Positions 5,607 to 57,545 are shown, numbered from the stretch's first letter. The stretch: DNA of 64,000 nt from a virus (IMGVR_UViG_3300012007_000001:32001-96000), one strand, 5' to 3'. Notes: generated from the letters alone by a model not told the origin. A program made the numbers and translations.

Positions 5607-5655
5607 ATTCTTTCTTGCCAGTGTTTTGTCTGTCGGCGGCAGTTCTAAACGGTTT
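5607..5655 (-). ncRNA. repeated pseudoknot-like 5' leader motif, copy A
   Basis: TTTAGAA-CTG-CCGCCGA-CAG-ACAAAACACT-GGCA-9 nt-ATG. Confidence 0.65.
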
Positions 5656-5839
5656 GTTTGTTGTCTGATTCGTATGCGTATTCAAGTTCAGCGGCCATTT
5701 TGCCACTTGTAACGTCATCTGCATTGTATGCCCAAGCAAGATGCTCTGCCAAGTCATTCAGGCGGGAGAAATCACGCATGGCGTAAGCCACGACCTTGAA
5801 ATCCATCTTTGCCAGTTCTTTTAAAACTTTCTGCTTCAT
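5645..5839 (-). CDS. small hypothetical protein
   Basis: first ORF after promoter and leader copy B. Confidence 0.6.
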   Translation of the reverse strand: MKQKVLKELAKMDFKVVAYAMRDFSRLNDLAEHLAWAYNADDVTSGKMAAELEYAYESDNKQTV

Positions 5840-5890
5840 TTCTTCTGTGCCAGTTTGAACAGTTGGCTCGTCTGCTTCTAAATGGTTTTG
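5840..5890 (-). ncRNA. repeated pseudoknot-like 5' leader motif, copy B
   Basis: TTTAGAA-GCAG-ACGAGCCAA-CTGT-TCAAACT-GGCA-8 nt-ATG. Confidence 0.65.
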
Positions 5891-5906
5891 TTTCTATTTG
5901 TTGGTG

Positions 5907-5974
5907 CAAAGTTAAGCATTTAATTTTATATTACCAAATATTTTGCAAAGAAAATAAAGCAAATAACTTTATTT
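5907..5974 (-). promoter_or_regulatory. Bacteroidota sigma-A-type promoter (TTTG / TAnnTTTG) with upstream palindromic operator
   Basis: TTTGGTAA...TAACTTTGCA at 5907-5938; AAATAAAG-N7-CTTTATTT at 5952-5974. Confidence 0.75.
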
Positions 5975-6091
5975 AACGTTTTGAGCGCATTTCTACCTAT
6001 TTAATAAAAAGGTGCAAGAATAGAAATCAATACTGACACTATGATTCTACCTTGCACCCACCGCATTATGAACAACAAGAAATCATATCTT

Positions 6092-6508
6092 TCAGGTTTG
6101 CGGAAGTTCGGTGTCATACACAACCTTGCCCGCATAGTTGCTATCTTCTTCTTCGCCGCTGAGATGCGCTTTCAGCCAGTCGCAGCAGCATCCAGCCCAC
6201 CCGATAAGGTAGCAGAACGATTCGGAAGAGTCGCCACAAATGGGCTGGTCAATGTACTCAAAGACATCTATGCCCAAATGACCGCATTCATGCACGATGT
6301 TGATGGTCTTGATGGCCTTCACGTCGCGGAAGCGGAACAAAACGACATTATCCTGCGCATTCTTCGTGACACGGCAGGCCGTCATAGCAGGGCAGTTGGA
6401 CTCCAGCGGTTCGCAGTCAAGTTCAAAGAAGCCACGAATGGCATCCGTACCGACACAGGCCATGAGTCGGAACGGATAGAAGTGCTGTTCAAATTCGTAA
6501 ATCTTCAT
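6092..6508 (-). CDS. hypothetical protein with HExxH motif
   Basis: IVHECGH...E.FCYL; coupled to portal stop codon. Confidence 0.6.
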   Translation of the reverse strand: MKIYEFEQHFYPFRLMACVGTDAIRGFFELDCEPLESNCPAMTACRVTKNAQDNVVLFRFRDVKAIKTINIVHECGHLGIDVFEYIDQPICGDSSESFCYLIGWAGCCCDWLKAHLSGEEEDSNYAGKVVYDTELPQT

Positions 6509-7926
6509 TATTCTGTAGGTTCGTTAGGTTGCTGGACTGGCTTCTGTAAAGCGGCCTTGCGCTCGGAATCGGCCAGTATCTTCTCTATTTCTTGCTGGGG
6601 CGCATCGGTGATGGCCAGCATCGTAACGGCTGTTTCCAGTGATACAAGCCCACGGTCATACAGTTCGCCGATAGACTTCCATAAACGCTCCTTATCCTCT
6701 GCAAACGGCTCTGCATATTCACCCTTAATCTTCAAAGCGTCGATTTCCGTCGCCATTTCGGGATGCAGCAGCTTCAGCAGCGCAAGTTTCAGATTCTTGT
6801 CACGGTCGAGCAGCGGGTCGTATGTTTCCTTCAAGTTGTCGCGCTTCATGTAGCCAAGTATCAACGCCCTGCGCAAAGCCTCTCCGCTTAGTGTTCCAAG
6901 CCCCTTCATCTTCTCATACGAGAAATCAGGCGTGAAGGTGTCATTCAGGATGGAATCATGCAGGTTGTCATGCTCATCCCTGCGCGAATCGCTGTCTGAC
7001 GGCGGGTTGACATAGCCGAAGCGTGATTTCTCTCCAGTCAGCTGAATCATCCTTCCGACGGTCTCGCCATTCTTGAGGTACTGCAAAACGTCTGCGGTTG
7101 CCTCTGCCAGCGGGTCGGCGAAATAGTTGTTGTTGTCAGCGTGCTTGGAATCGTTCATCTCCTCACGGCTGATTCTTCGCTCCGCGCCATCCCATGATTT
7201 ATTCTGATAGAAGTAAATCACTGGAATCTTGCCGAGGATGTTGTCATACACCGTGACCTGCCAGCCTACGGCAGAACGCTGGCACTGGAAATAGTAGTCG
7301 GCAGTCCAAATGTCATAGTGCTGCACATGGTTTCCGTTTTCCTTCAAGGTATATCCAAGCGCAAAGGCCACCATGTTCTCATACTGGTCAATCAGCGGAT
7401 GCAGCCTGTAGCCCTTGGAATACGCGGCCACGAAGTTATGGTATTTCAGCACACCGTTCTCTTGGTACAGCTGATAGACAAGTGCCGATTCCAGTTCCGA
7501 GCCTGCCAGTCGCTTGCACTGCCTCCACTTGGCATGAAAGCGCGTGTCATCCAGCATGTCCTTATACAGCTGGAATGCCCTGTCAGAGCCCTCCTTCTTC
7601 TGCCACTTCGGGGGATTGGCCAACAGGAAGAAGAGTTCCACCTCGTTGATGTACCTCTGACGGGTTCGCGGCAGCTTCTCCGTCTGATACGGCTCTTGCC
7701 CTTCTCTCCACTTGTTAGGGCGGTTCATTACATCGTGCGTCTGCCAGTTGTATTCACGAATGGCATTCGTCACAGCTAATTCGTGGTCTTGCATCAGGTT
7801 GATAGCGCGAGCCACATCATTCTCAAGAATGTAGGCGTACAGTTCACGCAATACGCCTGCACTGTTAAGTGTGACACCCCTAAACTGCGTCATCACCTGT
7901 AACTGATAATCGTCCAATAATGGCAT
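6508..7926 (-). CDS. phage portal protein (SPP1 gp6-like)
   Basis: about 470 aa, follows terminase; NILGKIPVIY, LSGEALR motifs. Confidence 0.85.
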   Translation of the reverse strand: MPLLDDYQLQVMTQFRGVTLNSAGVLRELYAYILENDVARAINLMQDHELAVTNAIREYNWQTHDVMNRPNKWREGQEPYQTEKLPRTRQRYINEVELFFLLANPPKWQKKEGSDRAFQLYKDMLDDTRFHAKWRQCKRLAGSELESALVYQLYQENGVLKYHNFVAAYSKGYRLHPLIDQYENMVAFALGYTLKENGNHVQHYDIWTADYYFQCQRSAVGWQVTVYDNILGKIPVIYFYQNKSWDGAERRISREEMNDSKHADNNNYFADPLAEATADVLQYLKNGETVGRMIQLTGEKSRFGYVNPPSDSDSRRDEHDNLHDSILNDTFTPDFSYEKMKGLGTLSGEALRRALILGYMKRDNLKETYDPLLDRDKNLKLALLKLLHPEMATEIDALKIKGEYAEPFAEDKERLWKSIGELYDRGLVSLETAVTMLAITDAPQQEIEKILADSERKAALQKPVQQPNEPTE

Positions 7927-7939
7927 AGTTCTTTCCGTT

Positions 7940-9295
7940 TTATTTGATTGCAATCTTACTATTCTTCTTTGTCACCTTTAGATTCTTCACTATCTTACCC
8001 AGCAGCTTGCCGAGCGTGTAGTAGCGGGCAGCGTCGATGGCATGGTTCCACTTGTCAACTGGCACGTTGATATAGTTGCCATCCTTATCCTTATCCCAAA
8101 CGTAGTTGCGCAATTCCTCATGCAGGTCAACAGAATCTTCCGTAACGAAGATGTCATCATAACTCTGCATCTTGTCAATGCCAGCCACGATTGAGCCATT
8201 CGGCTTCTGAACGGGGTATATCATTATTCCACCAAGAGCGATTTCGTCGATGAGTCGCGGGTCTGCACTATCGGCGAACACCATCAATCCGCTATACGGC
8301 TTCAGGAACTCTATGATGTCCTTTGACAGCATTCCAGTCCTGTAGCACAGCAGTTTTATATAAAGCCTGTTATCCCATATTCCGCACATCACGATGGCCG
8401 TTGGGTCATGCGTATATCCGAAGTCGATACCCAATGCAACGTGCTTGCACTGCGTCGGGAACTCCTTCACGATGCCCCATTTCTTGAACACAGCACCTTC
8501 CGCAACATCAGCCCACTGCCCCATGACGATGTGCGCATATCTTTCGGGGTCTGTTCGCTTCATGGTTTCCACGTTCTCGATGAACTGCGGGGAAAGGTTC
8601 TCTATGTTGTCGAGGTATGTCGTATGGATATGAAGCACGTCGGGATGCGTCGAAATCTGAACTGGTACACCGTCGAAGTATTCAATCCTGTGCGTGTCCT
8701 TTATATATTTCTGATAGATGAAGTGTCCGCTGTCCGTCGGGTTCATCACGATGATGATGAGGTTCTGAATGCCCAATGTACGGATGGAAAGCATGATTTT
8801 CTCAAAGTCATCAAACGAAGTCCACTCTTCCGCTTCATCACAGACGAACACCGTCAGGCCGTGGATTGATTTCAGCTTTGCCGTCTGATTGCCCGATGAG
8901 GTCTTGATGCCTCGGAACATGATATGTGAGCCTGTCTGACGGTTGATGACATCCTTCTTTGTGGCACGGAAATACTTCTGCGTACCCTCCATCTCTATCT
9001 TCTCCAAAAATTCGGGGATGACAGAAATATCGGCTGACACCATCGTATAGCGGGCGCAAAGAATCTGATGTGCAAGCAATTTGGCTTCATCACGCGGACT
9101 CGGCACGGCTTCAAAGGTCAGGCGTTCCAAGAAGGTTTCGACATTGAAAGACTTACCGCTTCCACGACCTCCAGTGACAAGCACAATCATCTTTCTGCCG
9201 TTGTTCAGATAGAGAGGATGGTAAACAGGCTGCACCTTGATACCCTTGCGCACCTGCTTCCGTAATACCTTCCGTCTATCTGCTACCCTTGTCAT
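7940..9295 (-). CDS. terminase large subunit (PBSX family)
   Basis: GGRGSGKS Walker A, VCDEAEE Walker B, GIDFGYTHDPTA, NHAIDAARY. Confidence 0.95.
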   Translation of the reverse strand: MTRVADRRKVLRKQVRKGIKVQPVYHPLYLNNGRKMIVLVTGGRGSGKSFNVETFLERLTFEAVPSPRDEAKLLAHQILCARYTMVSADISVIPEFLEKIEMEGTQKYFRATKKDVINRQTGSHIMFRGIKTSSGNQTAKLKSIHGLTVFVCDEAEEWTSFDDFEKIMLSIRTLGIQNLIIIVMNPTDSGHFIYQKYIKDTHRIEYFDGVPVQISTHPDVLHIHTTYLDNIENLSPQFIENVETMKRTDPERYAHIVMGQWADVAEGAVFKKWGIVKEFPTQCKHVALGIDFGYTHDPTAIVMCGIWDNRLYIKLLCYRTGMLSKDIIEFLKPYSGLMVFADSADPRLIDEIALGGIMIYPVQKPNGSIVAGIDKMQSYDDIFVTEDSVDLHEELRNYVWDKDKDGNYINVPVDKWNHAIDAARYYTLGKLLGKIVKNLKVTKKNSKIAIK

Positions 9296-10017
9296 TCTTC
9301 TTTCTGTACGTCTGATTCTACATTGTTCCAGTCATCCGTCATTTCCGCATCTATCCAGTGAGATACTGGTATGCCCTGCTTGACGTTCTGCGGCAATTCT
9401 TCTTCATCCTCGATTCCGCGCTGGATTTTCCTCCAGTTCGGGTCATGGTGAAACAGAAACGTCGATAGTGCCTGAATGTTCGGTGCAAGTTCCGATTCCG
9501 TCTCTTGAACTACGGCCTTATCCGTCAGTACCGTTATGCCAGTACCGCCGCACATTGGGCATTCCTTATCGTTTCCGTTACAGATGCAACGCGCCTGCAC
9601 ATACCTTGTTGTAACCGACTTAATCTTCCTTCCACCAATGGCCGCACGGTAGTATGCAGCCCTTGCAACACCGATGGCCTTTTCCCGCGCACGGGCTAAG
9701 ACGTGTGCGATGTGAGCGGAGCGCACGGCATTTTCTGATGCTGTCCACCTGTTGTAGCTTCCGTTTTTCATGTGGCTGAACACCTCGCGTGAAATGTCGA
9801 GTTGTGCCGCAATCTCTGTGTCAGTCATCCCCTGTCCTGCAAGCTGGTCAATCTTCTTGAAAAAGATTCCTTCGGGGTCGTCGTAGTCGTATTTGGCTTT
9901 GGAGTCGGGAACCTTGACGAGCGGCGCAGATGTCTTGCGTCGCTTCGTAGCTGCCTTTTTCACCGTTTTCTTCTTCGGCTTGGCTGCTGCTTCTGTCTTT
10001 TTCTTCCTTTCTGCCAT
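9292..10017 (-). CDS. terminase small subunit with Zn-ribbon insert
   Basis: upstream of TerL; G.TD.EIA..L HTH; CIC...CPMC; ELAPNIQALSTFL. Confidence 0.8.
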   Translation of the reverse strand: MAERKKKTEAAAKPKKKTVKKAATKRRKTSAPLVKVPDSKAKYDYDDPEGIFFKKIDQLAGQGMTDTEIAAQLDISREVFSHMKNGSYNRWTASENAVRSAHIAHVLARAREKAIGVARAAYYRAAIGGRKIKSVTTRYVQARCICNGNDKECPMCGGTGITVLTDKAVVQETESELAPNIQALSTFLFHHDPNWRKIQRGIEDEEELPQNVKQGIPVSHWIDAEMTDDWNNVESDVQKEE

Positions 10018-10023
10018 GATGCT

Positions 10024-10866
10024 TTACTCCAGTATGTCGATTTTATCCATAAGTTCGCGCCCGTCCACGAATTTGCTGTTTGGGTCGAATCCCAGCTGAA
10101 TGAGTGCGCCCTGTGTCTCTTGCGGGTTTGGGAACGATACGATGAAATACGACAACATGCCGCCGTCGTTGTTGGTGTCGGATTTCTTGTTTATGCGGTC
10201 TTTGACCTTCTGAATCTCGTTGTGGCGGGCTATCTGATTTTCGGGCGTGTCATTGTAGAAGTCAACGCTCCTGTCAATCTTCGTGTTTTCCTCACTGCCG
10301 TGTGTGTTGGCATCCACCTGTGCAAGATGCTCGTTGTCCTGTGTCAGATTGCCTTTGCGCCAGTCGTTAGCGGGGTCTGTCTCTTCGGGTATGTCGGTGA
10401 TGTTCCTGAACTCGTCATCGTCAATGGGCGTTATGCCAAGCATCTCCAAATCGAAGTCATTGAAGCCTGCCGCCGTATGGTCTATCTTCCTTAGTACGTT
10501 TCTTAACAGGTCATCGTCGAAGTCGCCCTGCACAGCCTTGTTGTTAAGGAACATGTTCTGCTCCATCTCCTCCTTTTCGGGCAGATGGACTACCTCCACG
10601 CGGATTTCATAGTCATTCTCCTTGGTGTCGGGATTGTAGCGGTTCACCTCGTCGATTATCTGCACCTTCTGATGACCGCCGACAAGGTTTCCTGTATCTT
10701 CGTTCCAAATGATGCCGCCCATAAGCCCCAGCCGTTTAAGGTTGGCTTTCAGAGCCTTTCTTGCATCTTCGGTAATCTTGCGGGGATTATACTCGGCCAG
10801 CTTTATCTGACTGCGAAGGATTACCCTGCTTTCCGCTTGTTGAATCTTGCTTTTCTTCACTGCCAT
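10024..10866 (-). CDS. ParB/Srx N-terminal domain protein
   Basis: YNPRKI...LKANLKRLG...IIWN..TGNLVGGHQ. Confidence 0.85.
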   Translation of the reverse strand: MAVKKSKIQQAESRVILRSQIKLAEYNPRKITEDARKALKANLKRLGLMGGIIWNEDTGNLVGGHQKVQIIDEVNRYNPDTKENDYEIRVEVVHLPEKEEMEQNMFLNNKAVQGDFDDDLLRNVLRKIDHTAAGFNDFDLEMLGITPIDDDEFRNITDIPEETDPANDWRKGNLTQDNEHLAQVDANTHGSEENTKIDRSVDFYNDTPENQIARHNEIQKVKDRINKKSDTNNDGGMLSYFIVSFPNPQETQGALIQLGFDPNSKFVDGRELMDKIDILE

Positions 10867-10870
10867 AACC

Positions 10871-12566: not shown

Positions 12567-12600
12567 CAAAGATAAAGCAAATAAATTGATTTACCAAATA
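12567..12600 (-). promoter_or_regulatory. promoter with overlapping operator
   Basis: TTTGGTAAATCAATTTATTTGCTTTATCTTTGCA. Confidence 0.7.
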
Positions 12601-13445: not shown

Positions 13446-13518
13446 TTGCGGGAGCAGGGCTCGAACCTGCGACCTCCAGTAAGTCAGACTGTTAAGCTAC
13501 CAACTGCTCCATCCCGCG
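13446..13518 (-). tRNA. initiator-type (tRNA-fMet-like) tRNA with GAC (Val) anticodon
   Basis: 73-nt cloverleaf CGCGGGA TG GAGC AGTTGGTA GCTT A ACAGT CTGACTT ACTGG AGGTC GCAGG TTCGAGC CCTGC TCCCGCA A; C1:A72, A11-U24, U37. Confidence 0.85.
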
Positions 13519-13534: not shown

Positions 13535-13699
13535 CACATATTACTTTTGTCATGTGAATCTATGCCTACATTATATTTCACCAATTTATATTAGTGAAAG
13601 AATCGCGGTATTTTGCAGCTGTTTCACTTCCAATTATTCAATCATCTTGCTTTATATTTCACCCAGCGGGCGCATTTCTTTCTGTATGACGTAGTACAT

Positions 13700-13749
13700 A
13701 TTATATTCGCCTTTCTTTATCCTGTCGGCATCAGGTCTAAACGGTTTTG
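13700..13749 (-). ncRNA. repeated pseudoknot-like 5' leader motif, copy H
   Basis: TTTAGA-CCTG-ATGCCGA-CAGG-ATAAAGAAA-GGCG-8 nt-ATG, after promoter TTTGGTAG...TACCTTTGCA. Confidence 0.65.
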
Positions 13750-13823
13750 TCTTTGCAAAGGTACGAAATAATATTGAAACTACCAAACTTTTTTTGCAGA
13801 AAAATAAAGCAAATAAATTTATT

Positions 13824-19388: not shown

Positions 19389-19730
19389 TTAAAGATGAGT
19401 GTATAAACCTGTCATTTCTGTGAAAGTGGCCTGCACCATGTCGCAGTAAACGCCCTTTGTTTCAGCTACAATCTTCTCAGTCGTTTCAAAAGTCTTTCGG
19501 CTTGTAGTCTTGCGAATCAGCTGCATGATATACGAATCCATTGCAGAATCATATATCATCTTGAAGAAATTGGCAGAGGTCTTGTTTCTGCCTATATTCA
19601 TAGAAAGAATGACGTTGCCACCCTTGCAGTCATAAACGGCCATCTTAACGCCTACCATGTAGCGAAAACTGCTACCACCTAACTGCTTCATCATCTCGTC
19701 GGCTATTGCCTTAACTTGCTGCTTATCCAT
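19389..19730 (-). CDS. conserved phage protein
   Basis: IA..M.KQLGG..F..M.G...GVYCDM...F...TGLYT.L. Confidence 0.7.
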   Translation of the reverse strand: MDKQQVKAIADEMMKQLGGSSFRYMVGVKMAVYDCKGGNVILSMNIGRNKTSANFFKMIYDSAMDSYIMQLIRKTTSRKTFETTEKIVAETKGVYCDMVQATFTEMTGLYTHL

Positions 19731-19783
19731 GTTGTCTGTGCCTGTTTGTCATCAGTCGGCTCTTCTGTTCTAAATGGTTTTGT
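19731..19783 (-). ncRNA. repeated pseudoknot-like 5' leader motif, copy C
   Basis: TTTAGAA-CAG-AAGAGCCGA-CTG-ATGACAAACA-GGCA-8 nt-ATG. Confidence 0.65.
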
Positions 19784-19796
19784 TCTTAAATCTGTT

Positions 19797-19922
19797 GCAA
19801 AGATAGTGATTATTTTCAGAACTACCAAACTTTTTCGTGAGTATTTTCAACCAAAATGCTTGTTTTAAGATTATTTAATAAATTAAATTGCTTTATTTAT
19901 TTAATAATGTGTATCTTTGCAC
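19797..19922. promoter_or_regulatory. divergent promoter pair with TGA-N6-TCA operators
   Basis: leftward TTTGGTAG...TATCTTTGCA; rightward TATCTTTGCA near 19913-19922. Confidence 0.65.
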
Positions 19923-22629: not shown

Positions 22630-23337
22630 TTATTTTTCCTGATTATCATTTACTATTTCATAAATCGGATAAACTATGTCATTGCCCAAAATGCTTAAAT
22701 CCATGTCGCAACACGTTCCGTATCTCTTGCGTCCTGTATCATCAATCTTAGATGATTCAGCCCAAACACGGATTTTCTTGTTGCGCCCTTTTCCGACATA
22801 CTGCGCCACATATACATGACCTTTCACAGACATGCAGCCGTTGTCATACAAGGCACGAATGCGAAACTCACCATCCAGCAGCCCATTTTTGGGCGGCTGC
22901 GGTTTCTTCACTTCCAGCAGTTCGGGATTATCGTAGCGATTACCTACGACTACCAGCCTGTCACGCCATGCCGTTAGTCCGATGTACGATGAACTGCCGA
23001 CTTGTTTCCCACACATCCCACAATCATGCCAAACGACTACATAGAGAAAACCGTGCTCGCCATTGCGAACAATGTCACCCTCGTATATTGATGTTCCATT
23101 GGAGTCTTTCAGTCCTGTGTTCTGCCCGATTGTATCAGGGTCGCAGATAGCGACTTCCTCGTAGCCAAAGACAAGTGCCACGTTTTCAAGTTTATCCACT
23201 TCTTCATCAAATGTAAGGTTACGATTGGTGATGATAACAGGTGCTTTCTTGCCGTCATAAATGGCATTGTGCAAATCGCCATATTGCCAGTTGCCAGTCT
23301 TGACATCCTTGGCTCTAAATCTTACCGTTCTGTTCAT
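22630..23337 (-). CDS. YopX-family protein with C-terminal extension
   Basis: FRAK...W.YGDL...GQNTGLKDSNG..IYEGDIV...VVGNRYDNPELL. Confidence 0.85.
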   Translation of the reverse strand: MNRTVRFRAKDVKTGNWQYGDLHNAIYDGKKAPVIITNRNLTFDEEVDKLENVALVFGYEEVAICDPDTIGQNTGLKDSNGTSIYEGDIVRNGEHGFLYVVVWHDCGMCGKQVGSSSYIGLTAWRDRLVVVGNRYDNPELLEVKKPQPPKNGLLDGEFRIRALYDNGCMSVKGHVYVAQYVGKGRNKKIRVWAESSKIDDTGRKRYGTCCDMDLSILGNDIVYPIYEIVNDNQEK

Positions 23338-26761: not shown

Positions 26762-27031
26762 TTAAAAATCACATTCAAATGAATATTGCTTTTTCAGTGT
26801 TTCCAGTGCCTTTTCAGTAACAAGATAGATGCCGTTATTCATTGGCTTTACCGAGCGATTTTGTTTCAGTTCTATAGGTCGCTTTATCCTGTTGCACCGT
26901 ATCTCATACCGTTCACCATAGACGGCTGTTATCAGAAAGTCAGCCTGTCTCTTGCGTTCATCTAAGGCAGTGGGCTTATATTCACCCTTCTTGATGAAAT
27001 TGGTATCTACAAAATAACCTCTTGCTGTCAT
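26762..27031 (-). CDS. hypothetical protein
   Basis: follows leader copy D. Confidence 0.6.
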   Translation of the reverse strand: MTARGYFVDTNFIKKGEYKPTALDERKRQADFLITAVYGERYEIRCNRIKRPIELKQNRSVKPMNNGIYLVTEKALETLKKQYSFECDF

Positions 27032-27078
27032 AATCGAAATGCCTGTTTACTGTCGGCTCGTCAGTTCTAAATGGTTGT
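27032..27078 (-). ncRNA. repeated pseudoknot-like 5' leader motif, copy D
   Basis: TTTAGA-ACTG-ACGAGCCGA-CAGT-AAACA-GGCA-8 nt-ATG. Confidence 0.65.
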
Positions 27079-27121
27079 GATAAGGCCGCATGGCTAATAC
27101 AGCGGCCTTGTATGCTGTTTA

Positions 27122-27334
27122 TTATAATTCTTCGGGCTTGTGCATCCTGTCGTACTCCTCATCCCAAATGGCATCCAGTTCATCCTCTTCTGCATAGACA
27201 TCGGTATTGTCGTACTTCAAAATCAGTCGCTTTGCGAAATTGATATGGGTCTTTGCCATTGCGCTGTCTGCGTTCATTATTGTCTGAGCGTCTGAAAGGT
27301 GGCTCATGATGGCGATTTGAATGTTGACTTGCAT
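27122..27334 (-). CDS. small acidic hypothetical protein
   Basis: start reassigned to MQVNIQ after leader copy E. Confidence 0.6.
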   Translation of the reverse strand: MQVNIQIAIMSHLSDAQTIMNADSAMAKTHINFAKRLILKYDNTDVYAEEDELDAIWDEEYDRMHKPEEL

Positions 27335-27390
27335 AATCTTCTGTGCCTGTTTGTCATCAGTCGGCTCTTCTGTTCTAAATGTTGTTGTTT
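27335..27390 (-). ncRNA. repeated pseudoknot-like 5' leader motif, copy E
   Basis: core identical to copy C; GGCA-9 nt-ATG. Confidence 0.65.
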
Positions 27391-27553
27391 CTTTTTGTTG
27401 GTACAAAGGTAAGCAATTAAATTGAAACTACCAAATTTTTCAGCAGAAAAATAAAGTTATTTGCTTTATTTAACAGTTAAAACGGCAAAAACAAAAGAAA
27501 AGGGGTGCAATATCGCTTTTGCATCCCTATAATATATATGTATGGCAGAATTA

Positions 27554-28015: not shown

Positions 28016-28099
28016 GTGCGGTTAAATTTTTAGTGCAAAGATAAAGTTATTTGCTTACATTCCCAAATTTATATGCTGTTTTTTATATCAAAATAACAT

Positions 28100-33964: not shown

Positions 33965-34105
33965 TAGAGGGAGCAGGGCTCGAACCTGCGACACACACAA
34001 TCCATGTGTAACTTCATGTATGCGAGGCTGCTATTCTTGCGCTCGTATTTACAGCCATCCTCCCGTTCCATATACGGGTGTGCTAACCAACTACACCATC
34101 CCCCT
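33965..34105 (-). ncRNA. tRNA-like RNA with about 70-nt variable-region insertion (anticodon position ATG)
   Basis: acceptor AGGGGGA/TCCCTCT, D arm GTGT/GCAC, anticodon arm CCCGT-ATATGGA-ACGGG, T arm GCAGG-TTCGAGC-CCTGC. Confidence 0.7.
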
Positions 34106-46157: not shown

Positions 46158-46228
46158 TTGGAGAAACGGGAGTCGAACCCATACAAACAGACCCAAATTC
46201 TGTTGTGCTACCATTACACCATTCTCCA
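46158..46228 (-). tRNA. tRNA-Gln (TTG)
   Basis: TGGAGAA TG GTGT..GCAC A ACAGA ATTTGGG TCTGT ..ATGGG TTCGACT CCCGT TTCTCCA A. Confidence 0.9.
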
Positions 46229-46448: not shown

Positions 46449-46520
46449 TACCCCATGCAAGAATCGAACTTGCCTTGACAGGTCGAAAACCTGTAGTCCT
46501 AACCGATAGACGAAAGGGGC
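46449..46520 (-). tRNA. tRNA-Glu (TTC)
   Basis: GCCCCTT TC GTCT..GGAC T ACAGG TTTTCGA CCTGT ..GCAAG TTCGATT CTTGC ATGGGGT A. Confidence 0.9.
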
Positions 46521-47246: not shown

Positions 47247-47300
47247 GCAAAGATAGTGCTTATTTTCAGAACTACCAAGAAAAAGTCTGATTATTTGCAG
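47247..47300 (-). promoter_or_regulatory. early leftward promoter with tandem operators
   Basis: TTGGTAGTTCTGAAAATAAGCACTATCTTTGCA plus TCTGATTATTTGCAGA. Confidence 0.7.
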
Positions 47301-48507: not shown

Positions 48508-48577
48508 TGCAAAGATAGTGATTATTTTCAGAACTGCAAAACTTTCTGATTATTTTCACCTAAATTAACTCTTGCAC
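48508..48577. promoter_or_regulatory. immunity-region promoter with tandem operators
   Basis: GTGATTATTTTCAGA and CTGATTATTTTCAC between the divergent genes; TATCTTTGCA on minus strand. Confidence 0.7.
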
Positions 48578-51461: not shown

Positions 51462-51525
51462 TAATTAGAAAGTTCCTATCTTCGCAGAATAACAAACAAC
51501 AAGAGGCTAACAAAAGGACAACAAG

Positions 51526-51552: not shown

Positions 51553-51555
51553 CCG

Positions 51556-51993
51556 TTATTCTTTCTTCGGTAGTAATGCCCTTAGATTCTCCAACACTTT
51601 ATTCTTTCCGCATCCTATCCTTCTTTGTGTTTCTGACATTCTGTTTATTGTTTTTTCTGTAAATCGCAGAAAATCTTCAATGTTTGCCTGCATAACATCG
51701 TTAGGTGTAAGATACAACAAACCAAGATGCCTATCATCCCCTTGCAACCATTCCGATTTCAAAACGAAGTAGTGCATCTTGCCTTTTATATAATATTGTA
51801 TTTCCCAATGAGCAGGCTCCCAGCTGCTTGCTTCATACCATTTAATTTCAACCTTCCTAACCTTCTGCTTTTCTACAGCAGCAAAATCTTCACCGCCATA
51901 TACCCAATGCGAATAGCAGGTATCACCCACCTTTAATATTGGTACTGGTGGATGACATTTTTCTGTGTACCTATAAAATCTCTCTTCTTTCAT
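51556..51993 (-). CDS. hypothetical protein (tandem paralog 1)
   Basis: P..KVGDT.Y..W...RKVEI...Y.I.G...Y.TP..M..N. Confidence 0.6.
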   Translation of the reverse strand: MKEERFYRYTEKCHPPVPILKVGDTCYSHWVYGGEDFAAVEKQKVRKVEIKWYEASSWEPAHWEIQYYIKGKMHYFVLKSEWLQGDDRHLGLLYLTPNDVMQANIEDFLRFTEKTINRMSETQRRIGCGKNKVLENLRALLPKKE

Positions 51994-52424
51994 TTCACAT
52001 GTAATAAGTTTCTTGCTTCACGTTCCGAATACCCTATCTTCATTGCTTCATCACGTATCATAAACGACTTCTTTTGAAGAAACTCCTTCAATTTGATAAG
52101 GTTCTGTTCCATCGCCTCCCGTGGTGTGCCGTAAATCATCAGGTAGTTCCAATGGTCTGCACCATAGCTGAATGGCAATCTGTAGCCAGTGATGTAGTAG
52201 TGAACGTGGTACTTTCCATCAATGTCAGACTTAGTAACTTCAATTTTCTTAATCTTTCGCGGTGTGACCTTCTCGATTTCATCCAGCCCCCACAGACACG
52301 GGATATAGACTGTATCGCCGACGTTGAAGCGCGGCACTGGCTTGATAGTTGCCAAGTCAATGACATCAGCATTCAGTGCAAGTTCCAGTTGGTGCGCCCT
52401 AATCTTTGCCTCTATTCTTTTCAT
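51990..52424 (-). CDS. hypothetical protein (tandem paralog 2)
   Basis: P.FNVGDTVY..W...KKIEV...YYITG...YGTP.EAM.QN. Confidence 0.6.
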   Translation of the reverse strand: MKRIEAKIRAHQLELALNADVIDLATIKPVPRFNVGDTVYIPCLWGLDEIEKVTPRKIKKIEVTKSDIDGKYHVHYYITGYRLPFSYGADHWNYLMIYGTPREAMEQNLIKLKEFLQKKSFMIRDEAMKIGYSEREARNLLHVK

Positions 52425-52728
52425 ACTCTTCGATTGCCTGTTTGCCTACATTGGTAATGCAATACCCTGTATTCGTTCCACTGAATGCACGACTATACCA
52501 TTTCACCAGCCCCCTCTTTGCCATCTTGCCAAGCAGTGACCCAGCGCAAAGCCATGCCTTTTTACCAGCACATGCACCATTGCCGCCGTTGCTGACAGCT
52601 TCAAACAGATACCGCTTTTCTTCATCTTCACCCCACAATGCAAGGGCAAAGCTATTAGCGGGCATCGGGCGTGAAAAGGTGGTTTTCTCCAGTACCTTCA
52701 ATGCCTTATAGGTCTTTTCCGTAATCAT
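52399..52728 (-). CDS. wHTH-like hypothetical protein
   Basis: L.KMAKRGLV...Y.ITNVGK. Confidence 0.5.
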   Translation of the reverse strand: MITEKTYKALKVLEKTTFSRPMPANSFALALWGEDEEKRYLFEAVSNGGNGACAGKKAWLCAGSLLGKMAKRGLVKWYSRAFSGTNTGYCITNVGKQAIEEYEKNRGKD

Positions 52729-53674
52729 ACTTTAGTAACATCCATTTCACCATTAAAATACTTCATCGTTGGATTGCGCCAGTCACATGAAAGACATTTG
52801 ACCATACGTTTCCCGTCATTACGAATGTACTTTTTCATAACAAGAAACGTGTTGCACGTCCTTTTTGATTCAAACAATGCGTATTTCCTTTTAGTACGAA
52901 ACACATCGCCATCTGCCAAATCAAACAGCATCATAACGTCTTGACACAACGCAGGGCGAAATCCAGTGCTTCAATCTGATGCTGGCACTTCGCGGCCTTG
53001 TCATACAACTTCAACTTTTCAGCATCCTGCATTTCCGCATTCAGCTTTTCGACCTTCTCCTCGATGGTCTGAATAATCAACTTTCTATCTTCCATATCAA
53101 CCTAATATTTTATTGTGAATTTTCTCTTGCAGTTCAATATGAATATCCTGCAATCCTGTTTCAAAATACTGCGCTTCCGCTGTTGGAGAAAATATGCCCT
53201 TCAATGACAGACAATGAAGATAATGACATTTCTCCAGCATCTCCAGTTGTTTTGCCGTGAACTTTTTACGCTTCACGTCTTTTAATTTCATCTTTGCCAT
53301 ATTACTTATAATTTACCATTCGTTTAACCGTGAATAATAATCTTTCTAACACATCTATTTTGTCATCGCTTTCTTGAACATCGTCAATAATAGCAATCAA
53401 TTCTTCGCGTTCTTTCTTCGTCATGGCCTATTCCTCCATCGCTTTACGAAAATCATCAAACATATAGTCAATGTCACGTCCTTTTACAAGATAGTCATTT
53501 ATATGGCTTTTCAGCCATTCGCAAGCATCATCTATTACTTTCTTGTTTGACCATTCCACGATTCTTACGGCCACGCCAGTAGTTACCTCATAGTCGGATA
53601 AAAGTTCATGCCCTATTTCGGTCATCAACTCTGCCGCCTTTTTCCGTACTTCTTCTTGTTTAATCATCATATTG

Positions 53675-55543
53675 TTACTTGAAATATTTGTTTCTGAATG
53701 CCTGTGAAAACAGTGTGCGCTCTACCAGTGTATAGGTCTCTTTCTCCTTTGCCGTGATAGGCCGCTTCCACTTCAACCTGTTCTTTATCGTATCAATGGC
53801 CACACGCACAATCGACTCAGCTGTTATGCCGTCTTTCGGCTGTAAGCCCTTTGCCATCATCTGACCCACGAACATCTTTATATATTCGTTTTCAGCCTCC
53901 AGTTCTTTCAGGTACATGGTCTTGAACTCCTTCAACAAACGCACAAATCTGTAATACTTTGACCTGTGCAGGCGCGAATTGAGGTAGTACTCAACATCTT
54001 CAATCTTCATGTCATCGTAATTCAGAATGCCGTCGTTGTCAAGGGCGACCCGAATTGAAACGCGATTCTTCCGCTTGCTATCTTCCCAATAACCGCGTAC
54101 CTCATTCGTTGGCATGTATTTAATCAAGAAATCGTAATTATCCCAATAGCCTTTACGCAAACCATCATCCAGTTTCTCCAGTGTGTAGATTCCGCTGGCT
54201 GGCAGTTCAGGGGCAGACCATTTGTTAGTGTAGTATTTCACGAAATCATGCTCGTCATTAAAATGATAGCCGCGTTCCGTGCTATACTTCGCTACTATAA
54301 TCAACACGCGCTTACCTTCGCAAAGCTGGCTGTTCATAGACTTCATCCATTCTTCGACAGACGGCCTACCATCGCCAAGTGCTCTGCTGGCATCCAGTTC
54401 ATACCGAAGCTGAATCTGTTCATCCGTGAATCCTTCCATCTTGATAAGACTGCCTGTAACGGTGTGCGGCGAAAACACATCGGAGCGTTCTACCAATCCC
54501 TGCATCAAGAAAGCCACCTGCGTATATTGCTTGCGAAAACTTTCTGATTCAAGTGTTCCGCTGACATGTGTGTACTGCCTCTCCTTTTCAAGAATCTTTA
54601 GGTATTCTTCTTTGTTCGGGTACATCCTATCAAACAGATAGATGTGTTCAGAATCTATCTTATAGAGGTTCTCACCGTTCCGAATAAGAAATACCGTATG
54701 ATGGTTGGGTATATTCATTATCCTGTTTGTCATTGCACCGCCAATGCTGCCTTCTTCTGCATACTTCTTATCCGTCCGACGCGGCTTGACGGCCACCATA
54801 GACTTCTCGTCAGGCATGAACTCCTTGAAGCGGTCATTCTGCAACAGCCATTCGTCGAACTTGTCAACCTTCTGCCAGTCGAAATCGTCATCAATCAATG
54901 CCAGTTCCTCATCCATAAAGATTACGGCCTGCCTGAATACTATCGGAGTGGTTTCGGGTGCTGGTTCGCCAGCGTGTAACTGTTCCACGCTTTCCTTGAT
55001 GCCCGCATAGGTCTCGATGGTCTGAATGACATAATCCAGCCTTTTGACCTCACGCCCCATCTTTTCTATCATATCACGCATAGGCCGAAGCCGTGCCTCC
55101 AGTTCCCGTGTTTTCCGCTGAATCATTATATCAGCATACTTTCGGGTCTTTTCGGCCACGATTGCAGCCCTGTTGATATTCTCACGCAGAATCATCAAAG
55201 TGTCTTTACTGCCAAGCGACATCAAAGCCGTATCGCTGCTTTCCGTAAACTCTTCAAAGGTTTCTCCGTTCAGCAGTCTTTCGGCCATCTGCTTAATCTT
55301 TTCGACATCAACACCCAGCACACTGTAATAATGCAGGTTGTCTTTTCCGATTCTGTAATCCTTCTTGAAGGTGTTATCTATCACCTCCAGCGTTTCAGGG
55401 TTCACAGTGTCAACGACTACGCTCCCATCATCATTGACGGCCTTAATCCTGTAGATGTCATCACGGTCGTACAGGTAGCATCCGACCTTCAACTCTTCAT
55501 TGACGGCCAGCTGCAAATCCGCTTTCTTGATGATTCCGTTCAT
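53675..55543 (-). CDS. large hypothetical protein with coiled coil
   Basis: 622-aa ORF; IETYAG..E...L..GEPAP...RQ...MDEE; LIRNGENLY. Confidence 0.7.
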   Translation of the reverse strand: MNGIIKKADLQLAVNEELKVGCYLYDRDDIYRIKAVNDDGSVVVDTVNPETLEVIDNTFKKDYRIGKDNLHYYSVLGVDVEKIKQMAERLLNGETFEEFTESSDTALMSLGSKDTLMILRENINRAAIVAEKTRKYADIMIQRKTRELEARLRPMRDMIEKMGREVKRLDYVIQTIETYAGIKESVEQLHAGEPAPETTPIVFRQAVIFMDEELALIDDDFDWQKVDKFDEWLLQNDRFKEFMPDEKSMVAVKPRRTDKKYAEEGSIGGAMTNRIMNIPNHHTVFLIRNGENLYKIDSEHIYLFDRMYPNKEEYLKILEKERQYTHVSGTLESESFRKQYTQVAFLMQGLVERSDVFSPHTVTGSLIKMEGFTDEQIQLRYELDASRALGDGRPSVEEWMKSMNSQLCEGKRVLIIVAKYSTERGYHFNDEHDFVKYYTNKWSAPELPASGIYTLEKLDDGLRKGYWDNYDFLIKYMPTNEVRGYWEDSKRKNRVSIRVALDNDGILNYDDMKIEDVEYYLNSRLHRSKYYRFVRLLKEFKTMYLKELEAENEYIKMFVGQMMAKGLQPKDGITAESIVRVAIDTIKNRLKWKRPITAKEKETYTLVERTLFSQAFRNKYFK

Positions 55544-55567
55544 ATTCTAAATGGTTTTGAATGATTC

Positions 55568-55803
55568 TTATTTATACTTTTCTGCATACCAGTCCATCGC
55601 CATGTCCTCAAAATGGCCGACGCTGGCATCTTTGGATTCGTCACCGTATTTTGCGGCGACTTCCGCTCTTGATGAAATGTACTCGACCTTTTCACCGTCT
55701 TTTCTTTCAAACCGCATCTCATACCGCTCATCGTGTTCACAATAGCGTGACATGCTTTTCAAATCGTGCTCTATGGTGAAGAGCAAAAACTTCTTGTCTT
55801 CCA
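55568..55803 (-). CDS. hypothetical protein
   Basis: ORF in operon, probable start MEDKK. Confidence 0.5.
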
Positions 55804-55818
55804 TTTTTCCGTTTTTTA

Positions 55819-56061
55819 TTATAAGACCTTTTTTAATTTGTTCAGTGCTTCGTCGCGTGTCTTGCCCCAACAGGCAGGATTCACATTGCCGTCATTGTCG
55901 ATGATTTCAGCAGCAAGATACCAAAAATCATATTCCCATTCGCTGTATTCCTTCTTGGCTTCACGAATCGTTTCAAACTCATCCACAATATCCTGTGTGC
56001 CTTTGTTGCACACTGCAATACTGATGCAGATGGTATAACCTTTATACTTAACTTCCTTCAT
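55819..56061 (-). CDS. hypothetical protein
   Basis: ORF in operon. Confidence 0.55.
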   Translation of the reverse strand: MKEVKYKGYTICISIAVCNKGTQDIVDEFETIREAKKEYSEWEYDFWYLAAEIIDNDGNVNPACWGKTRDEALNKLKKVL

Positions 56062-56072
56062 TTCCGTATGCT

Positions 56073-56591
56073 TTAGAATGTTTGACCCCAGCCCTCATTA
56101 CGATGGTATTCAGCCAGCTTGCAGCCGAAACTATTGTAATAATAGACCACTTCATCACGTTCCTTGGTGTAGTCACCCTCTTGGGCTGTCTGCTGTAGGT
56201 AAGCCATGAACTCATCCTCGCTGACATGCGCCCTGTTGTACTCGTCGAAATCCAGTATCTTCATATTGAATGCTTTTGGCAGTTTCCTTGTCTGTTTCCG
56301 AAATCCGTTGTGCCACTTACAGGCATCAATGAAATCTGCTGTCGTGACCTTTTCGCCATCGCCAAGCAGGTGCATCAGCTGTGCAAAAACCTCTATCGGG
56401 CAACTGTGCGCCCTTCCGTTTATCTGAGCCGTCACAACAAAGGCATTCTGCCTGTTGTCGTATTCGCAGACGGCATCACATTCAAGGTAGGCTTTGGCAA
56501 GTTCTGTCATCGCCCTGCACTCTTGCATGTACTTACCCAATGCAACCTGTGCGCGTTGTGCGACCTTCCGCAGCTTTGTTTCATCTTTCAT
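56073..56591 (-). CDS. hypothetical protein
   Basis: ORF in operon. Confidence 0.55.
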   Translation of the reverse strand: MKDETKLRKVAQRAQVALGKYMQECRAMTELAKAYLECDAVCEYDNRQNAFVVTAQINGRAHSCPIEVFAQLMHLLGDGEKVTTADFIDACKWHNGFRKQTRKLPKAFNMKILDFDEYNRAHVSEDEFMAYLQQTAQEGDYTKERDEVVYYYNSFGCKLAEYHRNEGWGQTF

Positions 56592-57011
56592 AAGTTCGGC
56601 CAGTATTTATAATCGTTCTCGTTCAATCTGTCACTGAATACATTTCTCATGTGGGTATCTTCAAACGGCTTGTTACCGTGATTCTTGACCCTGTAGATGT
56701 ATTGCTCTGCATCATCATCGACCTGTGCATACTTCCAGCGTTCCAAGGCAGCGTAGAATGTTCGCTTCTCGTCGGCTGTCAGGTCTGAATAGCTGCAAAG
56801 CGTTCTTTCATGCGCCTGTTCATACAATCCGACTATAGCGGCCAGTTCGATGCTGATATTGCCTTTCATCGGTTCTTTGACATAAATCCTGAACAGGTCT
56901 CTCAATCCGAAACGAATGGGTATCTGATTCCATTTGTTCGGCTCAAGCCCCTTGCGATGCAGCAGGGTTGCAATATCCGTCGTTGTCTTGACTGCTGGTT
57001 TATTCATATCC

Positions 57012-57272
57012 TTAGAAGCACTTATATACCTTATTATATATATTCTCTCCGTGTAATACCTTGATGACGGCCAGCATAGCGTTCTGCATATCATATCGCT
57101 TGTTACAGTCATCAATCGTCATGCAATCCTTATCCAGTAGGCTGTCGAAATACTTTTTGAAGTCTTTCAGCCCGAAGTATTTGGCAACCTCTGAGCATAC
57201 CTCTGTGTGCAAGTTATCGGCGGTCATATCCTGCCACTCCATAACCTTCTGAATGAATGTTTTCTTTGCCAT
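57012..57272 (-). CDS. hypothetical protein
   Basis: first ORF after leader copy F. Confidence 0.6.
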   Translation of the reverse strand: MAKKTFIQKVMEWQDMTADNLHTEVCSEVAKYFGLKDFKKYFDSLLDKDCMTIDDCNKRYDMQNAMLAVIKVLHGENIYNKVYKCF

Positions 57273-57325
57273 ATCTCTTGTGCCTTTGTTTATGCTGTCG
57301 GCAGCAGTCTAAATGTTGTTGTTTC
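57273..57325 (-). ncRNA. repeated pseudoknot-like 5' leader motif, copy F
   Basis: TTTAGA-CTG-CTGCCGA-CAG-CATAAACAAA-GGCA-8 nt-ATG. Confidence 0.6.
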
Positions 57326-57335
57326 TGTTATCTGA

Positions 57336-57476
57336 TGCAAATTTACGAATAATATTTGAATTGACAATGAAATATTTAATTTTTAACACAAAATTAACCT
57401 TTGCTAAATAAAGTTATTAAATTAAAGATTTTAGACTAAAAGTTTGCATAATAAATTTATTTGCTTTATCTTTGCA
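57336..57476. promoter_or_regulatory. divergent promoter pair with operator
   Basis: leftward TAAATTTGCA; rightward TTTGCATAATAAATTTATTTGCTTTATCTTTGCA. Confidence 0.7.
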
Positions 57477-57491
57477 CCCATAAAGCGAAAG

Positions 57492-57545
57492 CAAAACCAT
57501 TTAGAAGCGGATGCGCCAACCGTTCAAACAGGCACGTAATATAAT
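57492..57545 (+). ncRNA. repeated pseudoknot-like 5' leader motif, copy G
   Basis: TTTAGAA-GCGG-ATGCGCCAA-CCGT-TCAAACA-GGCA-11 nt-ATG. Confidence 0.65.

Follow-up and report, generated by a model that had tools for sequence, protein, structure and literature searches.

Like the CI RNA of satellite phage P4, the c4 antisense RNA of phages P1 and P7 is an RNA immunity factor; it represses the phage's own lytic genes through an exposed segment complementary to their leader. In phage T4, a class of many mRNAs is instead repressed by a protein, RegA, which reads loosely conserved AU-rich start regions. The nut sites of phage lambda combine a single-stranded box of conserved sequence with a small hairpin, 3' of the box, whose loop is also conserved; in long phage operons they lie close to the promoter or after the first small gene, as does nutR, which follows cro. 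In the preQ1-I riboswitch, stem 1 leads into a short loop, the 5' strand of stem 2, the 3' strand of stem 1, an A-rich loop and finally the 3' strand of stem 2 near the start codon, the whole spanning about 35 nt. CI of P4 has two pairing sites, seqA and seqC, at which its binding leads to premature termination (PMC4825925).

Here, we describe a leader of about 55 nt that heads most of the lytic operons, and a few internal genes, of a rumen Prevotella-type phage. The reading that we favor, with a probability of roughly one half, is that this leader is a shared post-transcriptional operator addressed by a phage antisense RNA, with a mini-pseudoknot setting the geometry at a start codon that lacks an SD sequence.

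A leader common to most lytic operons of a rumen phage

The window analyzed is a stretch of 64,000 nt from a virus record of 119,237 bp, and the record as a whole carries 11 full copies of the leader and about three short forms. A preliminary description of the window had reported eight sites; all eight are present where reported and in sense orientation to the next ORF (Table 1), and the claim that the orientation is always sense extends to all 11 full copies. The covariance model R1 scores the leader copies at 54-77 bits, with a clean gap down to the next best match at 20 bits. A looser pattern finds nine matches in the window against 1.5 expected, a number reached by none of 100 shuffles, although two of these matches, overlapping at 23285-23319, are due to chance; a backwards control pattern has no match in the 119,237-bp record.

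The leader is tied to the start codon more closely than to the promoter. As the preliminary description had it, the distance to the ATG is fixed, with GGC lying 9-12 nt upstream in every copy even though the intervening sequence varies, while the promoter spacing shows a variation of 14-25 nt. A Bacteroidota-type promoter (TTGGTAG..N..TAnnTTTG) does precede six of the eight copies in the window, again as first described, and those at 5649 and 27071 are intercistronic. Genome-wide, the leader is found just 3' of nine promoters and, in two operons, again after the first small gene; four tag copies (window 5649 and 27071, genome 87553 and 20141) are intercistronic with no promoter nearby.

What kinds of genes follow the leader? 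They had been taken for small genes with early or host-takeover roles, a view that fails, since the leaders head long operons (6-9 kb) that include those for terminase, portal and capsid. No Pfam or PHROG function was found for the first genes behind the leaders. Elsewhere, the phage encodes a fusion protein with HTH, sigma-region-4 and alpha-CTD parts, along with a repressor-like gene. The GGC does have the spacing of an SD sequence, as had been pointed out, but this phage hardly uses such sequences: an SD-like word (GGAG, GAGG or AGGAG) is present upstream of only 3-5% of its ORFs, and no sufficient anti-SD complementarity was found at -5 to -13, where the conserved (A/U)GGC(A/G) gives at most AGG.

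All relatives with a portal 83-94% identical carry copies of the leader. The strict leader pattern was found in none of 185,579 species genomes, and it is therefore not a host-wide signal. The carriers form a small clade of temperate, Prevotella-type phages from the ruminant gut.

Table 1. Leader copies in the window and the two anti-tag elements. Leader spans are matches to the R1 covariance model in window coordinates; other coordinate systems are named.
Feature	Position	Strand	R1 (bits)	Context
Full leader, intercistronic	5604..5661	-	61.0	Before 216-aa DUF3560-type gene; no promoter upstream; tag variant CCG; the 64-aa ORF upstream ends at a UAG within the tag
Full leader	5837..5894	-	68.6	Promoter 5907-5937(-); before 64-aa ORF; stem GCAG/CUGU, loop ACGAGCCAA; 15-nt complement to sRNA seed
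Full leader	13697..13753	-	61.8	Promoter 13756-13786(-); heads tRNA/terminase/portal operon; orthologues L087:4000-4056 and L082:4020-4076, with GCC/GGU and ACC/GGU in relatives
Full leader	19728..19786	-	76.8	Promoter 19798-19828(-); before 113-aa ORF; 15-nt complement to sRNA seed
Full leader, intercistronic	27029..27083	-	61.8	Behind hairpin AAGGCCGC..GCGGCCTT; before 89-aa ORF
Full leader	27332..27391	-	74.8	Promoter 27404-27434(-); before 70-aa ORF
Full leader	57270..57325	-	59.0	Left arm of divergent promoter pair; before 86-aa ORF
Full leader, sole plus-strand copy	57488..57548	+	61.8	Promoter 57443-57474(+); before 116-aa ORF; stem GCGG/CCGU; 15-nt complement to sRNA seed
Short leader form	55541..55563 (genome 87541-87563)	-	20.2 (partial match)	No hairpin; tag CAAAACCAUUUAGAAU adjoins AUG of 622-aa gene; 17-nt perfect complement to sRNA seed, running into the start codon; duplex -23.4 kcal/mol
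Candidate 97-nt sRNA	genome 9772-9676; L131:377-473:-	-		Own promoter and terminator (predicted)
Second anti-tag	L132:210-303:-	-		3'-UTR of amidoligase/GATase-like operon; between hairpin and terminator

The tag and its candidate antisense partners

The best-conserved part of the leader is a 15-nt tag, CAAAACCAUUUAGAA, directly 5' of the stem; the TTTAGA(A) of the preliminary description is a reduced form of it. Predictions leave the tag 65-95% unpaired, and it is exactly complementary, over 8-17 nt, to the unpaired seed of a candidate 97-nt phage RNA. In the predicted fold of this RNA, 13 unpaired nt (UUCUAAAUGGUUU) have a pair of hairpins on one side and a U-run terminator on the other; the MFE is -44.3 kcal/mol and the z-score -7.34. 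Its -7 box, TA(C/T)CTTTG, and its U-run terminator are found in all lineages. In an alignment of six sequences from five lineages, in which the neighboring gene is 66-98% identical, 32 pairs are kept, four of them with double compensatory changes and many with wobble-compatible single changes, and the 14-nt unpaired seed does not vary at all. Assembled contigs of relatives, 90-95% similar, come from RNA-library runs.

Perfect seed matches of 8-17 nt are found at 14 leaders, full and short forms together. They extend over 15 nt at four leaders and over 13, 12, 10, 9 and 8 nt at others (three leaders match over only 8-10 nt), while the short forms match over 17, 14 and 15 nt. The predicted duplexes range from -10.6 to -23.4 kcal/mol, compared with a background of -8.5 +/- 2.1, and they reach -16 kcal/mol or below at 10 of the 14 leaders versus 0.3% of random windows. 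No covariation between tag and seed was seen; neither of them varies, the only variation in the tag core being from A to G, the one change that keeps the RNA pairing as G.U, and the CCG tag variants still pair with the seed in this way.

G000, G001 and the 88%-portal lineage all conserve a second anti-tag, which lies in the 3'-UTR of the amidoligase/GATase-like operon. It is extended by a G/U-rich tract that mirrors the A/C-rich tract 5' of the tag, and its best target is the leader of its own operon (-28.4 kcal/mol). A GCC-GAAN-GGC mini hairpin recurs in this element. In gene sense, TCTAAATGG occurs exactly twice in the genome, once in the sRNA and once in the 3'-UTR anti-tag. Of the 16 copies of the tag word, 14 are in sense; the reversed two each fall in the unpaired gap of a strongly folded, terminator-ended unit. 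Rfam searches of the sRNA and 3'-UTR loci gave chance-level matches only (trpB, 20.8/59; sbrA, 18.7/45).

How might these elements work together? We infer that the two RNAs meet, the tag serving as a docking site for a phage-encoded antisense RNA, with the 97-nt sRNA and the 3'-UTR of the amidoligase/GATase-like operon as the candidates for this role. Pairing of seed and tag would set the translation and/or stability of about 14 transcription units jointly; if so, one RNA could probably tune all of these units together. The effect would most likely be repression, because at the short forms the predicted duplex spans the start region from -16 to +1. For the long leaders, where about 45 nt separate the tag from the AUG and place it beyond the normal 30S footprint, a mechanism of repression is conjecture. 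By compacting the 30 nt that separate tag from start, the mini-pseudoknot would bring the tag beside the ribosome-binding region of the SD-less mRNA.

The 97-nt sRNA also resembles an inverted copy of the leader, tag plus hairpin, and the complementarity could therefore reflect ancestry rather than function.

The hairpin and the predicted pseudoknot

The fold 3' of the tag was followed through 37 distinct leader sequences from about eight related phage contigs. All seven pairs are kept in 37 of 37 sequences, with 225 of 225 cells (100%) paired, versus only 11-38% of cells in slid controls. The core stem has 3 bp (C-W-G/C-W-G) and an optional fourth pair, and only the middle one of the three core pairs varies. 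This pair (22/34) is UA in 18 sequences, AU in 17 and GC in two, and is never unpaired; among the copies of this genome the counts are five AU, five UA and one GC. Reciprocal stems around the same loop occur at orthologous sites, CUG..CAG at L082:18569 and CAG..CUG at L087:19389. The preliminary description was correct that stem 1 undergoes compensatory changes, but the six stems it listed differ essentially at one pair, apart from the optional fourth. Likewise, the GCC and GGC that it called invariant are so in this genome, whereas relatives show a G-C > G.U > A-U series at one site: pair 28/48, between loop and GGC, is GC in 34 sequences, GU in one and AU in two. The larger alignment, then, bears out covariation at stem pair 22/34, while the changes in GCC:GGC all come from one orthologous site and the other two pairs of that helix never vary. 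RNAalifold chose GCC:GGC as its sole consensus helix.

All 37 distinct sequences are consistent with an H-type topology, and this second module of the leader can be drawn as a predicted H-type pseudoknot of 3 + 3 bp whose third loop is rich in A. Most copies, though not all, would also accommodate a competing nested pairing (CC..GG, UUU..AAA). The support for the pseudoknot consists of one varying pair per helix, which for GCC:GGC means one orthologous site. Taken separately, stem 1 contributes 0 to -1.5 kcal/mol and GCC:GGC -2.8 to -3.9 kcal/mol. Judged from the alignment, the leader fold is real but minimal. The stems do seem too weak to act alone, as had been argued; however, the partner in trans is probably an RNA rather than the ligand or protein then envisaged.

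The leader matched no Rfam family. At gathering thresholds, Rfam 15 returned only four tRNAs from the window, and at E<=10 the four loci with seven of the leader copies gave one unrelated match, to frnS (20.9 bits versus a gathering threshold of 60).

Alternative readings and known systems

Perhaps the leader instead enhances translation or acts as an operator, with a protein or the ribosome itself as its reader, and the complementary sRNA is irrelevant. The tag and A/C-rich tract could form a standby site for SD-independent Bacteroidota ribosomes, or the pseudoknot could be the operator of a phage RNA-binding protein, as with RegA of T4, or could stand in for the SD helix. The constant GGC-to-AUG distance despite varying sequence, the rarity of SD-like words, the intercistronic copies and the weakness of the fold alone would all suit such a reader, as would the unvarying TTTAGA, GCCRA and GGC in segments that would be exposed, the short forms that put the tag exactly at the ribosome-binding region, and the recurrence of the mini hairpin in the 3'-UTR element. 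We nonetheless consider this explanation unlikely. It does not account for two exposed anti-tags just 5' of terminators or for an invariant sRNA seed beside covarying stems, the absence of the strict pattern from species genomes argues against a host-wide signal, and no candidate RNA-binding protein was found, the first genes behind the leaders being without Pfam or PHROG function.

The layout would also suit a nut-like site for processive antitermination, with the tag as boxA and the hairpin with its conserved loop as boxB, so that RNA polymerase would pick up a phage or host factor as it enters each long lytic operon. Consistent with this model are the position just 3' of nine promoters, the second occurrence after the first small gene in two operons, the conserved single-stranded box adjoining a small hairpin, the length of the operons and the HTH/sigma-region-4/alpha-CTD protein. 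However, a nut site needs no fixed distance to a start codon, the short forms adjoin the AUG without any hairpin, no N- or Q-like protein was recognized among the phage proteins scanned, and the anti-tags again go unexplained, all of which makes antitermination improbable.

If the conserved letters were a double-stranded DNA site, bound in either orientation by a phage regulator (the repressor or the sigma4/alpha-CTD protein), the anti-tags would simply be reversed sites. The same word of 9-15 bp does occur in both orientations, most copies are <60 bp from a promoter, and genes for both kinds of regulator are in the phage. It is difficult to see, however, why four intercistronic copies would have no nearby promoter, or why 14 of 16 copies would be in sense and both reversed ones in unpaired gaps of terminator-ended folded units. 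DNA read by a protein would not be expected to show compensatory changes in the stem and in GCC/GGC, and the tag core changes only from A to G, which preserves RNA pairing; a DNA site is very improbable.

There is also little chance that the leader is merely a promoter-leader cassette, spread by duplication and gene conversion and functioning only as an unstructured A-rich 5' UTR, with exchange between two cassette alleles mimicking covariation. The copies are indeed paralogues in one genome, they share upstream promoter and palindrome sequences, and their stems are mainly of two classes, which could be exchanged as whole units. Yet TTTAGA, GCCRA, GGC and their spacing have been held while flanks and spacers diverged, the stem is paired in all 37 sequences, a common loop is combined with reciprocal stems at L082:18569 and L087:19389, one site carries the G-C > G.U > A-U series, and the intercistronic copies lack the promoter part.

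The structured cis-RNA of the preliminary description is upheld by sense orientation, intercistronic copies, ATG-fixed spacing and stem compensation, but its riboswitch-like ligand sensing finds no support. A preQ1-I-like pseudoknot that senses a host metabolite and gates translation of the phage operons would share the known topology (short P1, loop-to-3'-tail pairing by the start, A-rich linker) and a fold weak enough to need a ligand, but it is scarcely credible when an E of up to 10 still brings no match to an Rfam riboswitch model (PreQ1 included), P1 has only 3 bp, eleven copies before unrelated operons, structural genes included, would be unprecedented, the diverse operons downstream show no linked metabolic gene set, and the tag-antisense relation provides a simpler trans factor.

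The comparison with known systems follows the same lines. As in preQ1-I and minimal H-type pseudoknots, the strands follow one another in the same order within about 35 nt; here, however, stem 1 has only 3(-4) bp, stem 2 has one covarying pair, there is neither an Rfam match nor a ligand-pocket consensus, and multiple copies precede unrelated phage operons. The layout is compatible with boxA and boxB of a lambda nut site, but differs in its fixed AUG distance, its hairpin-less short forms, the pairing with a downstream GGC and the lack of a recognized N-like factor. With the RegA regulon of T4 it shares a common element next to the start codons of many phage mRNAs, though what is shared here is a defined tag with a fold, and the leading candidate for the trans factor is an RNA, not a protein.

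Read as an operator addressed by a phage antisense RNA, the leader resembles the targets of c4 (P1/P7) and CI (P4), where a phage sRNA represses the phage's own lytic transcripts through an exposed segment complementary to their leaders; in the present case, such an effect is predicted. There is no sequence or Rfam relation to c4 or CI, the host belongs to the Bacteroidota and does not use SD-based initiation, and the sRNA is not processed from the leader of its target operon. A second copy of the anti-tag is carried in a 3'-UTR. Finally, whereas c4 and CI act on 1-2 sites in one operon, the predicted targets here are 11 full and about three short leaders, spread over ~80 kb and ~9 promoters.

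The leader and its fold

The phage is an IMG/VR virus record of 119,237 bp with direct terminal repeats, of which the window covers bases 32001-96000. Its genes include those for large terminase, portal, helicase, integrase and a repressor-like protein, and its promoters follow the Bacteroidota pattern (TTTG..TAnnTTTG). An SD-like word precedes just 3-5% of its ORFs, and positions -14..-12 and -3 show an excess of A. NCBI lists an 83%-identical portal under a Prevotella sp. MAG, and sheep and bovine gut metagenomes contain near-identical DNA. The portal match, the ruminant gut DNA, the promoter type and the rarity of SD words make a rumen Prevotella-like bacterium the likely host. Translation initiates without Shine-Dalgarno pairing in Bacteroidota, among them the Prevotella and Bacteroides that dominate rumen and gut, and to our knowledge there is scant information on the ways in which their phages control or time protein synthesis.

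All eight leader sites of the preliminary description are present and sense-oriented. A loose pattern gives 9 matches where 1.5 are expected, and the whole genome holds 11 copies, against none for a reversed control pattern. The covariance model R1, built from these 11 copies (alignment A1), recovers exactly 11 from this phage and another 11 from its close relative G001, all scoring 54-77 bits, with the runner-up at 20 bits. Each leader is a module of about 55 nt in which a 15-nt tag precedes a mini hairpin with GCC in its loop, a downstream GGC and the AUG. The strongest conservation, overlooked at first reading, actually lies 5' of the stem, in the tag region CAAAACCAUUUAGAA. Nine copies lie behind a strong promoter, 14-25 nt past its -7 box depending on the copy, and two are intercistronic (window 5649 and 27071). 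The fixed spacing to the start codon is borne out, with 9-12 nt between GGC and ATG in every copy and differing letters in between. The module is anchored to the start codon, not to the promoter, which points to an action at the RNA level.

The leader had been proposed to form a co-varying H-type pseudoknot. Within this genome, variation of the stem is limited to a single base pair. With relatives there are 37 distinct leader sequences, in which 225/225 cells of the proposed 7 pairs are standard pairs, as against merely 11-38% in control structures slid by 1-3 columns. The middle stem pair is UA in 18, AU in 17 and GC in 2 of the 37; the outermost loop-to-GGC pair is GC in 34, GU in 1 and AU in 2. 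Stem type switches at orthologous sites of two related contigs, CUG..CAG at L082:18569 versus CAG..CUG at L087:19389, with a common CCGCCGA loop and identical downstream letters. Upstream of the terminase operon the two triplets are GCC/GGC in this phage, G001 and L084, GCC/GGU in the L087 lineage and ACC/GGU in the L082 lineage. The comparison supports the leader hairpin (stem 1) and makes the GCC:GGC pseudoknot contact plausible, both on the thin evidence of one varying pair in each helix.

The calculated energy is 0 to -1.5 kcal/mol for stem 1 and -2.8 to -3.9 kcal/mol for GCC:GGC, which is the sole helix kept by RNAalifold; the MFE of the whole leader is -3.6 to -5.5. Because both helices are predicted to be very weak, the fold would have to be short-lived or stabilised by a partner. 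A fourth GCC:GGC pair, on either side, was rejected by eye as fitting subsets of copies only. A nested alternative, made up of CC before the tag paired to GG plus a UUU:AAA helix, suits most copies but breaks down in the ACA variants and leaves a G28-to-A change unexplained.

The leader is present in all contigs with a portal 83-94% identical (L080, L082, L084 and L087) and in linked contigs (L091-L096 and L138/L139). It is confined to a narrow clade, since it is missing from portal relatives at 52-57% identity (L052, L085, L086 and L088-L090), and neither Porphyromonas phages nor a fragment of a human faecal phage carry it upstream of their homologues of a 216-aa gene. A pattern scan of IMG/VR returned 38 loci, and G001 (116 kb) was the only other record with multiple real copies; single matches, at 12-19 bits and in coding or unrelated DNA, were rejected. 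In 185,579 GTDB species genomes the strict pattern gave 34 matches, about the chance number and none scoring with R1, and a portal protein search of these species genomes found no prophage. Rfam holds no family matching the leader or the small RNA and 3'-UTR element described below, and IMG/VR scans for the latter two found G001 only. Four RNA-labelled sequencing runs (assembled contigs) contain relatives 90-95% similar.

Genes and elements around the leaders

The genes behind the leaders had been described as small early or host-takeover genes. This is too narrow, as the operons with leaders at their head include terminase and portal, capsid, an amidoligase/GATase pair, YopX-type genes and many unknowns; both arms of a divergent promoter (window 57.3-57.5 kb) carry them too. 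Ordinary short leaders precede the tail genes, the lysogeny module and the replication block (window 28-47 kb). Four strong promoters of the same type have short leaders without tag or fold; the genes they serve are one inside the terminase operon, the one lying immediately upstream of leader promoter 27404-27434, and neighbours of the lysogeny and replication modules.

Several other features of these regions deserve mention (see table). One operon headed by two leaders encodes a 320-aa protein that joins HTH_17, sigma-70 region 4 and the RNA polymerase alpha C-terminal domain, a fusion unusual for phage transcription factors. The UAG in the tag of intercistronic leader 5649 is the stop codon of the preceding 64-aa ORF, and terminating ribosomes would therefore sit on this tag. 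Between a 70-aa ORF and leader 27071 lies a stable hairpin without a U-run, AAGGCCGC..GCGGCCUU, which could be a processing or stability element. A 21-bp element (AATAAAG-CAAATAA-CTTTATT), its 7-nt centre found in both orientations, lies 59 nt (once 49 nt) upstream of the -7 box at five leader promoters, and may be either a factor/UP site or an AT-rich, weak terminator belonging to the operon before it. Four tRNA genes were found with Rfam; one spans 141 nt and hence has a long insert.

Features discussed in the text, in window or whole-genome coordinates
Feature	Position	Strand	Remark
320-aa fusion protein	window 3573-4535	minus
UAG of tag, leader 5649	window 5645-5647	minus
Stable hairpin	window 27085-27115	minus
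21-bp element	window 5953-5973, 27450-27470; genome 12817-12837, 20577-20597, 29351-29371
Strong promoters, tag-less short leaders	window 12567-12597, 28036-28066, 47248-47278, 48510-48540	minus
tRNA genes	window 33965-34105 (141 nt), 13446-13518, 46158-46228, 46449-46520	minus
622-aa gene	window 53675-55543
Short leader forms	window 55541-55563; genome 20141, 114681	minus	tag directly at start codon, without hairpin or pseudoknot
Candidate antisense RNA, 97 nt	genome 9772-9676 (L131:377-473:-)	minus	promoter to terminator; 22 kb upstream of window
Second anti-tag	genome 27509-27602 (L132:210-303:-)	minus	3'-UTR of amidoligase/GATase-like operon

Candidate antisense RNAs

The complement of the tag, or seed, occurs in a 97-nt unit between a 110-aa gene and a tape-measure-like gene, with the -7 box TACCTTTG. 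The predicted fold of this candidate small RNA consists, in this order, of two hairpins of 10 and 8 bp, an unpaired stretch of 13 bases (UUCUAAAUGGUUU) and a terminator of 14 bp with U-run, at an MFE of -44.3 kcal/mol (z -7.34; 0/200 shuffles as good). The unit has the same placement in G001 and four metagenome contigs, where the neighbouring gene is merely 66-79% identical. Across six aligned sequences from five lineages, 32 pairs are kept, with double compensatory changes at 4 and many further G.U-compatible single changes in the stems, and the 14 columns of the unpaired seed are invariant. Such conservation looks like that of a trans-acting small RNA. The candidate resembles an inverted copy of the leader, and common ancestry could therefore account for the complementarity; the invariance of the exposed seed, next to stems that covary, speaks for selection acting on it.

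The match between seed and tag is longest, 17 contiguous nt, at the short leader of the 622-aa gene (a gene with no Pfam or PHROG match), where the duplex extends into the AUG. It is 15 nt at the short form at genome 114681 and at four of the full leaders, 14 nt at the short form at genome 20141, and 13, 12, 10, 9 and 8 nt at five other full leaders, while two CCG tag variants retain pairing via G.U. These duplexes are calculated at -10.6 to -23.4 kcal/mol, versus -8.5 +/- 2.1 for random windows, and prediction leaves the tag largely unpaired. Tag and seed do not covary, because both are invariant. No pairing of the loop or GGC with the remaining parts of the small RNA was seen by eye.

A second anti-tag, GUUCUAAAUGG with a G/U-rich tract, is flanked by a hairpin and a terminator, and is kept in G000, G001 and the lineage with an 88% portal. 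Its best partner is the leader of its own operon (-28.4 kcal/mol). The word TCTAAATGG, in gene sense, has two occurrences in the genome, namely the small RNA seed and this 3'-UTR anti-tag. The 3'-UTR element also has a mini hairpin in which the loop and partner letters of the leader recur, as GCC-GAAC-GGC (in L082, GCC-GAAG-GGU).

Possible mechanism and known systems

We give a probability of about 0.5 to the reading that the leader is a shared post-transcriptional operator. The antisense RNAs of the phage would base-pair with the tag and thereby act jointly on about 14 transcription units, probably lowering their translation and/or stability. The setting might be lysogeny, with a role in immunity, or a late stage of infection, with feedback from the 3'-UTR. 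The duplex would cover the start itself in the short forms. How might pairing reach the start region in the long forms? Perhaps, and this is conjecture, the 3+3-bp pseudoknot compacts the intervening 30 nt and brings the tag near the ribosome-binding region.

The leader might instead be an operator for a protein or the ribosome, without the small RNA; we consider this unlikely. Quite doubtful is a bolder scheme, in which leader and small RNA form a self-contained riboregulon for SD-independent ribosomes, the GCC:GGC helix of the mini-pseudoknot taking the SD/anti-SD place on the 30S platform and the antisense RNAs gating it genome-wide via the adjoining tag; if true, phage mRNAs would have their own docking device in Bacteroidota. 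Nut-like antitermination, with most copies behind promoters and all at a set distance from a start codon, seems improbable. A DNA site and a neutral cassette are both very improbable. The hairpin/GGC module is shaped like minimal H-type pseudoknots such as preQ1-I, but did not pass as a member of that family; a riboswitch is scarcely credible.

If the shared-operator reading is true, one portable leader before about 14 transcription units, together with a phage small RNA, would amount to a compact switch, acting genome-wide, that governs lytic gene expression or RNA-based immunity. The pair is a directly testable system, and in Bacteroides or Prevotella genetics it could serve as an orthogonal part for controlling expression. 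Among known systems, c4 of phages P1 and P7 is an RNA immunity factor. CI of phage P4 is another (PMC4825925). These two are closest in logic to the leader and small RNA, without any sequence relation; the phage described here is set apart by how many targets it has and how widely they are spread, by the extra 3'-UTR copy and by the phylum of its host. If the reading is true, the switch would reach further than the antisense systems of P1, P4 and N15, which act on one operon.
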